Below the pieces are notes generated by a model. The model was not told the origin of the DNA. It did not search any database and saw only the letters and a program-made list of their open reading frames with translations. Shown piece by piece: positions 45,339-45,436 of a stretch of 64,000 nt of DNA. The position numbers were made by a program, and so were the translations under genes. This stretch comes from Escherichia coli (lineage in GTDB: Bacteria; Pseudomonadota; Gammaproteobacteria; Enterobacterales; Enterobacteriaceae). The DNA is taken from NCBI RefSeq assembly GCF_003334815.1, contig NZ_QOWO01000020.1. The stretch is one strand, 5' to 3'. Numbering within the stretch: the stretch's first letter is position 1; each line of letters begins with the position of its first letter.

Positions 45339-45436
45339 GACGTGCTACGCCTGTCAGGCCTATTCGACTCCTGCAATGTATTGAATTTGCATAGTTTTAT
45401 AGGTCGAATAAGGCGTTCACGCCGCATCCGGCGTGA
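45339..45436. repeat. REP - IHF-motif - REP element (RIP/BIME) between cho and nadE
   Basis: REP-like palindromes flank a CCTGCAATGTATTGAATTTGCATAG core. Near-identical architecture and core to the copy at 52481-52587. Confidence 0.75.

Follow-up and report, generated by a model that had tools for sequence, protein, structure and literature searches.

Two BIME-1 (RIP/RIB) repeat elements in the nadE-cho and chbG-katE spacers of Escherichia coli

The two composite repeats that lie between nadE and cho (copy A) and between chbG and katE (copy B) belong to an already-known repeat family, described since the early 1990s, and they fit it point by point. Both are very probably BIME-1 elements (RIP/RIB), in which a z1 REP and an inverted y REP enclose an L linker with an IHF motif, and which would act at the 3' ends of mRNAs. 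The elements were reportedly named RIB by Boccard and Prentki (1993) and RIP by Oppenheim, Rudd et al. (1993). Both copies were located in a stretch of 64,000 nucleotides, which is called the window here.

The window is E. coli K-12-like and represents the reverse strand of MG1655 at approximately 1.81-1.87 Mb. In the 12.5 kb around both elements, the identity to MG1655 is 99.97%, and a window position x corresponds to MG1655 position 1868763 - x. The final ~176 nt (63825-64000) form an IS10 end beside ydiY/yniD, with a match to Rfam RNA-OUT at 63862-63931 on the - strand (97.3 bits). None of the complete E. coli genomes compared has this junction (best coverage 82%), and the DNA probably stems from a K-12 derivative in which Tn10/IS10 had inserted at this place. 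The genes on either side of the two elements, which the initial annotation had already named correctly, are the following.

44361-45248, - strand: cho
45478-46305, - strand: nadE
51628-52377, + strand: chbG
52635-54896, - strand: katE

Copy A is situated in the 229-nt spacer from the nadE stop to the cho start, 44 nt past the nadE stop codon, so that nadE precedes it and cho follows it in the direction of transcription. Copy B is found in a 257-nt spacer between the stop codons of chbG and katE. The elements had been described as lying between convergent or unrelated transcription units. This applies to chbG and katE, which are convergent, but nadE and cho are co-directional. In the NC_000913.3 annotation as read, there was no repeat_region feature at either locus or at yaaX-yaaA. 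A 107-codon ORF with a TTG start (52331-52654, - strand) spans the whole REP/BIME spacer at chbG-katE; it is almost certainly spurious and of the kind that is prone to mis-annotation over REP clusters.

The 25-nt core CCTGCAAT(G/A)TATTGAATTTGCA(T/C)AG occurs exactly twice in the 64 kb, at 45370-45394 and 52516-52540, both times on the + strand. In 100 dinucleotide-preserving shuffles of the sequence, no match was obtained even with up to three mismatches allowed. A repeat finder identified the same pair as the largest direct repeat of the window (123 nt, 81% identity, ungapped). The order z1 REP, 35-nt L linker and inverted y REP is in register between 45334-45433 and 52480-52579, and the linker length is exactly 35 nt in both. 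The pairwise alignment showed that the likeness runs through the central linker and hence beyond the generic REP consensus. With the conserved flanks included, 100/127 positions are identical between the copies, i.e., 8/12 in the left flank, 22/30 in the z1 REP, 29/35 in the L linker, 31/35 in the y REP, and 10/15 in the right flank. Copy A differs from the family consensus at 27/127 positions and copy B at 10; in the core, each copy has one mismatch to the consensus. The pair had been called near-identical, which is true of the core and the y arm, whereas copy A has a degraded z1 arm.

The REP arms were scored against the three E. coli REP consensus sequences (Y, Z1, Z2) published in PMC11208160. 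In both copies, the REPs are inverted with their GTAG/CTAC ends toward the linker: copy B reads ...CAGGCCTAC-L-GTAGGCCGG... and copy A reads ...CAGGCCTAT-L-ATAGGTCGA.... Each of the two loci carries one BIME-1 unit. The 127-nt unit of copy A corresponds to 1823315-1823441 in MG1655, and its parts are as follows.

45322-45333, + strand: left flank motif, degenerate, with 5 mismatches to the family consensus CAAACGCAAAAT (in-register alignment of 84-101 copies)
45334-45363, + strand: decayed z1-type REP, CGTCTGACGTGCTACGCCTGTCAGGCCTAT, matching Z1 at 22/30 positions and better than Y or Z2
45364-45398, + strand: 35-nt L linker, including the core at 45370-45394
45356-45398, - strand: match to Rfam RF02751 (ES036), 42.9 bits against a gathering score of 37.6
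45374-45386, - strand (MG1655 ~1823377-1823389): IHF consensus match ATTCAATACATTG, 1 mismatch to WATCAANNNNTTR
45399-45433, - strand: inverted y-type REP, matching Y at 30/35 positions (pattern match with 3 mismatches)
45434-45448, + strand: right flank motif, family consensus ATGAACAAAGCGCACT

Between nadE and cho, no strong structure other than copy A is present. Its z1 REP, though decayed, folds as a hairpin, and the y REP forms a 10-bp hairpin in both RNA folds. A LexA-type box of the form CTG-N10-CAG, which we take to be the SOS box of cho (ydjQ), is located at 45273-45292 (CACTGGATAGATAACCAGCA on the - strand). It precedes the cho start codon by 24 nt, and copy A ends 43 nt upstream of it. 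The box is conserved in the aligned Escherichia orthologues.

The 127-nt unit of copy B corresponds to MG1655 1816169-1816295. The parts of copy B and of its spacer are listed below.

52389-52419, + strand: solitary Y-like REP, matching Y at 27/35 positions, 12 nt after the chbG stop codon, hairpin in the fold
52435-52456, + strand: GC-rich hairpin 1, AGGCGGCGTAACTGCGCCGCTT, with a 9-bp stem, between the solitary REP and copy B
52468-52479, + strand: left flank motif CAAACGCAAAAC, 1 mismatch to the family consensus
52480-52509, + strand: z1-type REP, matching Z1 at 29/30 positions and including the natural IS621 target ATCAGGCCTAC
52510-52544, + strand: 35-nt L linker, including the core at 52516-52540
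52502-52544, - strand: match to Rfam ES036, 55.5 bits against a gathering score of 37.6
52520-52532, - strand (MG1655 ~1816231-1816243): IHF consensus match ATTCAATATATTG, 1 mismatch, identical to the family consensus
52545-52579, - strand: inverted y-type REP, matching Y at 34/35 positions (exact match to a 34-nt pattern)
52580-52594, + strand: right flank motif TAAACAAAGCGCACT, 1 mismatch to the family consensus
52608-52631, - strand: GC-rich hairpin 2, GAGGCGGCGCAATTGCGCCGCCTC, with a 10-bp stem (-24.6 kcal/mol), followed by AAAUGAUUU

The additional REP next to copy B, placed at 52390-52420 by the initial annotation, is real; it is Y-like, starts one position earlier, and is 81% complementary to the y arm of copy B, with which it makes up an inverted repeat. 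A REP at a distance of 12 nt from a stop codon, as here after chbG, reportedly reduces translation (Liang, Rudd and Deutscher 2015). Read on the katE strand, hairpin 2 comes directly after the stop codon of katE. Hairpin 1 resembles it, and the 8-nt direct repeat AGGCGGCG is common to both.

On the - strand, the linker reads ATTCAATA(C/T)ATTG and agrees with the IHF consensus WATCAANNNNTTR at 12/13 positions in both copies. In both copies, the ATTCAATAYATTG motif occupies the position that it has in the family consensus. In the 229-nt cho-nadE spacer, 45374-45386 is the only IHF match with at most one mismatch. Across the window, matches with one mismatch occur at 1.3 per kb. The motif is meaningful only through its conservation and the published binding data, as the sequence alone is no proof of binding. 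IHF binding to the BIME-1 family has been reported (PMC2817692, PMC3333891), and a text search of the literature on IHF at the nadE REP found nothing relevant.

Folding gave three hairpins on either strand, namely the y REP, a small hairpin within the linker (TGCAA/TTGCA), and the z1 REP, with z-scores of -4.5 to -5.2. In an alternative fold, the two REP feet pair across the linker. In the covariation analysis of 84 family copies, 96.7% of the cells pair, and only 4 cells changed on both sides. The family is too conserved for this analysis to be informative for or against structural selection. No U-run follows the REP hairpins at either copy, and a simple consensus scan of 45249-45477 and 52378-52634 found no intrinsic terminator. 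Similarly, a simple scan of both spacers for sigma-70-like promoters found none.

BIME-1 elements are defined by a z1 and a y REP and a long, conserved L linker, often with an IHF site, and they occur as one copy per locus (PMC3333891, PMC2817692). The size of the family was estimated by comparing a query of 53 nt, with the linker in its middle, with 5426 complete E. coli genomes. The L core was present in 5426/5426 genomes, at a median of at least 29 places per genome; this is a lower bound, as no more than 40 places were counted in a record. A 127-nt consensus was derived from 101 distinct copies and reads CAAACGCAAAAT / TGCCTGATGCGCTACGCTTATCAGGCCTAC / AAGATTTCTGCAATATATTGAATTTGCATGATTTT / GTAGGCCGGATAAGGCGTTCACGCCGCATCCGGC / ATGAACAAAGCGCACT. 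Hence, the conserved unit takes in the outer flank motifs. The earlier extents placed both elements correctly, but the conserved unit is wider, with about 127 nt (45322-45448 and 52468-52594). As a linker pattern would be circular, the REP arms alone were used for a search of 811 kb of related DNA. Among the z1/y doublets found in this way, 80/90 have a 35-nt linker and 88/90 have the same core. The reading of both elements as a REP, an IHF-type core, and an inverted REP (RIP/BIME) is thus borne out by the arm types, their orientation, the 35-nt linker, and the extragenic position, and it also fits the IHF consensus with its one mismatch and the membership in a multi-copy family.

When one genome of each bacterial species was scanned for the exact pattern, 92 stretches were found. 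The strict pattern matched in E. albertii, E. whittamii, two unnamed Escherichia species, two divergent 'E. coli', and three Pseudocitrobacter species, in which the family is abundant, and it gave no match in Salmonella, Klebsiella, Citrobacter, and Enterobacter. Matches were also seen on short or small contigs (~0.26-6 kb) in assemblies of Desulfosporosinus, Methylobacterium, Bacillus, and Alkalicoccobacillus and in Bacteroides and Collinsella MAGs. These look like E. coli contamination; one such stray contig (L038) is the K-12 katE-side junction itself.

Two further observations concern the build of the family. In Escherichia sp. MOD1-EC7003 (L082 7859-8560, L088 331-1032), z1-L-y units are repeated head to tail in at least 4-5 copies, for the most part with a period of ~115 nt, whereas BIME-1 is described as single-copy per locus. 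The element at yaaX-yaaA (L102 366-470, MG1655 5565-5669) combines the same L linker with a z2-type left REP (z2-L-y), which shows that L linkers do not go strictly with z1. This element has reportedly been annotated as a RIP.

Copy A is present in 5426/5426 E. coli genomes. Even the weakest ranked match spans 100% of a query of 631 nt at an identity of 93%, so that the element cannot be absent there. Orthologues occupy the nadE-cho position in five other Escherichia lineages. Their z1 arm is intact in E. whittamii and in Escherichia sp. E1V33 and deleted in E69 and MOD1-EC7003. In E. coli, the z1 arm is mutated, and one compensatory T:A to C:G change keeps the stem. In none of the six Escherichia lineages examined has the L linker or the y arm been lost from this site. 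Judged from these alignments, copy A predates E. coli, is fixed, and has a z1 arm in decay. In the strain cS100a (L101 412-690, ~45380 in the window), the L core of copy A is interrupted by a 263-nt fragment that is annotated as part of an E3-binding-domain gene and that has a 5-nt duplication, ATGTA, at its ends. This may reflect either a genuine insertion or an error of the assembly.

We distinguished at least five forms of the chbG-katE spacer (46, 257, 83, and 297 nt, and interrupted by IS621). The whole K-12-type spacer was matched in 1931 genomes. A 63-nt unique piece beside copy B was found in 2172/5426 genomes (~40%), in a single copy in each. As this piece is single-copy wherever it is present, no donor locus was found for the non-repeat part of the K-12-type allele. 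The other ~60% of the genomes, O157:H7 among them, carry a spacer of 46 nt in which the hairpin (AAGGTCAC...GTGACCTT) is unrelated and copy B is absent. The 46-nt spacer is also found in a divergent Escherichia lineage used as an outgroup and is therefore ancestral. Copy B, which is near the family consensus, is part of a derived allele carried by ~40% of the strains. Since ~60% of the genomes are without copy B and show no sign of harm, any host function that it has is dispensable. BIMEs as a whole are said to be a major source of intergenic polymorphism (Bachellier et al. 1997).

The 83-nt allele (L099) is the K-12 allele without a 174-nt stretch that the 8-nt direct repeat AGGCGGCG delimits. 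It keeps the solitary REP and one hairpin (hairpin 2) and is without BIME-1. Its rarity, with at most 9 genomes, favours a later deletion rather than a state before the insertion. The 174-nt block between the AGGCGGCG repeats is possibly the record of a BIME-1 insertion into a terminator hairpin. The 297-nt allele has a 40-nt duplication between GGCGGCGT repeats. In strain MB07011 (L004 1820-3120, ~52497-52544 in the window), IS621 is inserted in the z1 arm of copy B (ATCAGGC-CT|AC) at its known target ATCAGGCCTAC. The L linker to the right of IS621 is the non-K-12 variant ACCAATAAACTGCAATACATTGAATTTATACGACTTT and is identical to the L linker of an unrelated BIME-1 copy (L089), which suggests an exchange between BIME-1 loci linked to IS621.

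How the elements act is proposed from their position and from the family literature. The terminator or insulator role suggested by the initial annotation is likewise a published claim for the family as a whole. IHF would bind and bend the L linker in duplex DNA, as described for other members. Copy A is expected to be transcribed as the 3' tail of nadE, and copy B as the 3' tail of both katE and chbG. Once transcribed, the REP hairpins should block 3'-to-5' exonucleases, and they could attenuate read-through with the assistance of Rho. The elements would then mark and stabilise mRNA 3' ends and would not be classical terminators. Such a role is known for transcribed REPs, which resist 3' exonucleases and define stable 3' ends, while true and often Rho-dependent termination takes place further downstream (PMC6061677). 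BIMEs are also reported to attenuate transcription and to hinder the diffusion of supercoils. The family has probably spread as a REP doublet handled by the Y1 transposase TnpA-REP/RAYT, which has been linked to REP doublets (PMC2817692, PMC3333891). For the nadE-cho locus, it is plausible that copy A ends or stabilises the nadE message and shields cho from read-through. A further step, in which copy A would have been recruited into the control region of cho, an SOS excinuclease, as an architectural element, appears unlikely. Its IHF motif is centred ~100 bp upstream of the cho LexA box, and its L linker and y arm have stayed in place even in the lineages that lost the z1 arm. If it were co-opted, IHF bending or a REP barrier to read-through from nadE could set the basal or induced expression of cho.

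The least improbable of the alternatives, though still doubtful, is that both copies are neutral or selfish relics of a mobile repeat and serve no host function at either locus. This would account for the absence of copy B from ~60% of the genomes, for its place in an indel-prone spacer with at least five alleles, and for the decay of copy A, which is off the consensus at 27/127 positions and whose z1 arm is deleted in two other Escherichia lineages. However, the L linker and the y arm of copy A persist in six Escherichia lineages and in 5426/5426 E. coli genomes, one double substitution in its z1 stem is compensatory, and the family binds IHF according to the literature (PMC2817692, PMC3333891). 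That the elements are classical Rho-independent terminators of nadE, chbG, and katE is quite improbable. Stable GC-rich hairpins do stand directly past the stop codons, and reviews list termination among the functions of REPs (PMC3333891), but the missing U-run after any REP hairpin and the empty scans of both spacers led us to reject this reading. Moreover, at chbG-katE, the separate non-REP hairpins at 52435-52456 and 52608-52631 are nearer the genes than copy B, and strains without copy B make do with a spacer of 46 nt and a single hairpin.

It is very improbable that the elements are independent sRNA genes of the Rfam family ES036 (CssrF) on the - strand. Both linkers match the complete 43-nt model above its gathering score, and for cssrF, a transcript of ~290 nt from the dacB/yhbZ spacer of Shigella flexneri was seen on a northern blot (PMC3071730). 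The model, however, equals the repeated L linker plus the GTAG foot of the REP and does not describe a distinct gene, so it is expected to match every BIME-1 copy. Both matches sit on the - strand in the 3' tails of nadE and katE, where any RNA is most simply explained as a REP-protected 3'-UTR fragment, and a simple scan gave no sigma-70-like promoter in either spacer. The lack of a promoter in that scan and the identity of the Rfam model with the repeat linker were the grounds on which an independent sRNA gene was set aside. The idea that a generic REP consensus and a chance likeness in the middle explain the pair has a negligible probability. Only the abundance of REPs in E. coli would speak for it, but the linkers agree at 29/35 positions, the same linker recurs in more than 100 other copies, and the idea was rejected because the core had no match in the 100 shuffles. 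BIME-1 elements with a role at mRNA 3' ends remain our preferred reading of both copies.

Compared with BIME-1/RIP/RIB as described, copies A and B show no essential difference. Copy A departs from it by its mutated z1 arm and flanks, and copy B is accompanied by the solitary Y-like REP and the two non-REP hairpins. With BIME-2 or REP325-type arrays, which bind gyrase and include naRNA4, both copies have the y REP in common. Weak matches to naRNA4 over the y arms, with 39.7 and 26.9 bits, stayed below the gathering score of 59.5. BIME-2 consists of z2 REPs with short S linkers in tandem arrays, has no IHF site, and shows a higher gyrase affinity (PMC3333891, PMC6379681, PMC1475751). It was rejected as the class of our elements because their left arms fit Z1 over Z2, their linker has 35 nt, and each locus has a single unit. 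The likeness to the REPIN/RAYT (TnpA-REP) system lies in the inverted REP doublet, the replicating population, and the presence or absence at the chbG-katE locus (PMC2817692, PMC8049555). The elements appear to differ from it by their two arm types and by a conserved linker predicted to bind a protein. No RAYT gene was found within the 64-kb window.

These results have some practical consequences. Matches to the 'ES036 sRNA' of Rfam in enterobacterial genomes should be taken for BIME-1 linkers. The nadE-cho copy is old, fixed, and directly upstream of an SOS promoter and is thus a clean candidate for studying the native function of a RIP. The natural alleles at chbG-katE (46, 83, 257, and 297 nt, and IS621) are useful for isogenic comparisons and for the study of repeat gain and loss.

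The window contains a third BIME with the same architecture at 24946-25041, between the convergent genes gdhA and ynjI. Its parts are a y-like REP that has degraded, a linker of 34 nt, and a z1 REP in inverted orientation (29/30). The linker is an L that has diverged (CTGCAATGAATTG...), and it shows neither the IHF consensus nor a match to Rfam ES036. The REP downstream of gdhA reportedly affects the stability of the gdhA mRNA (Merino et al. 1987).
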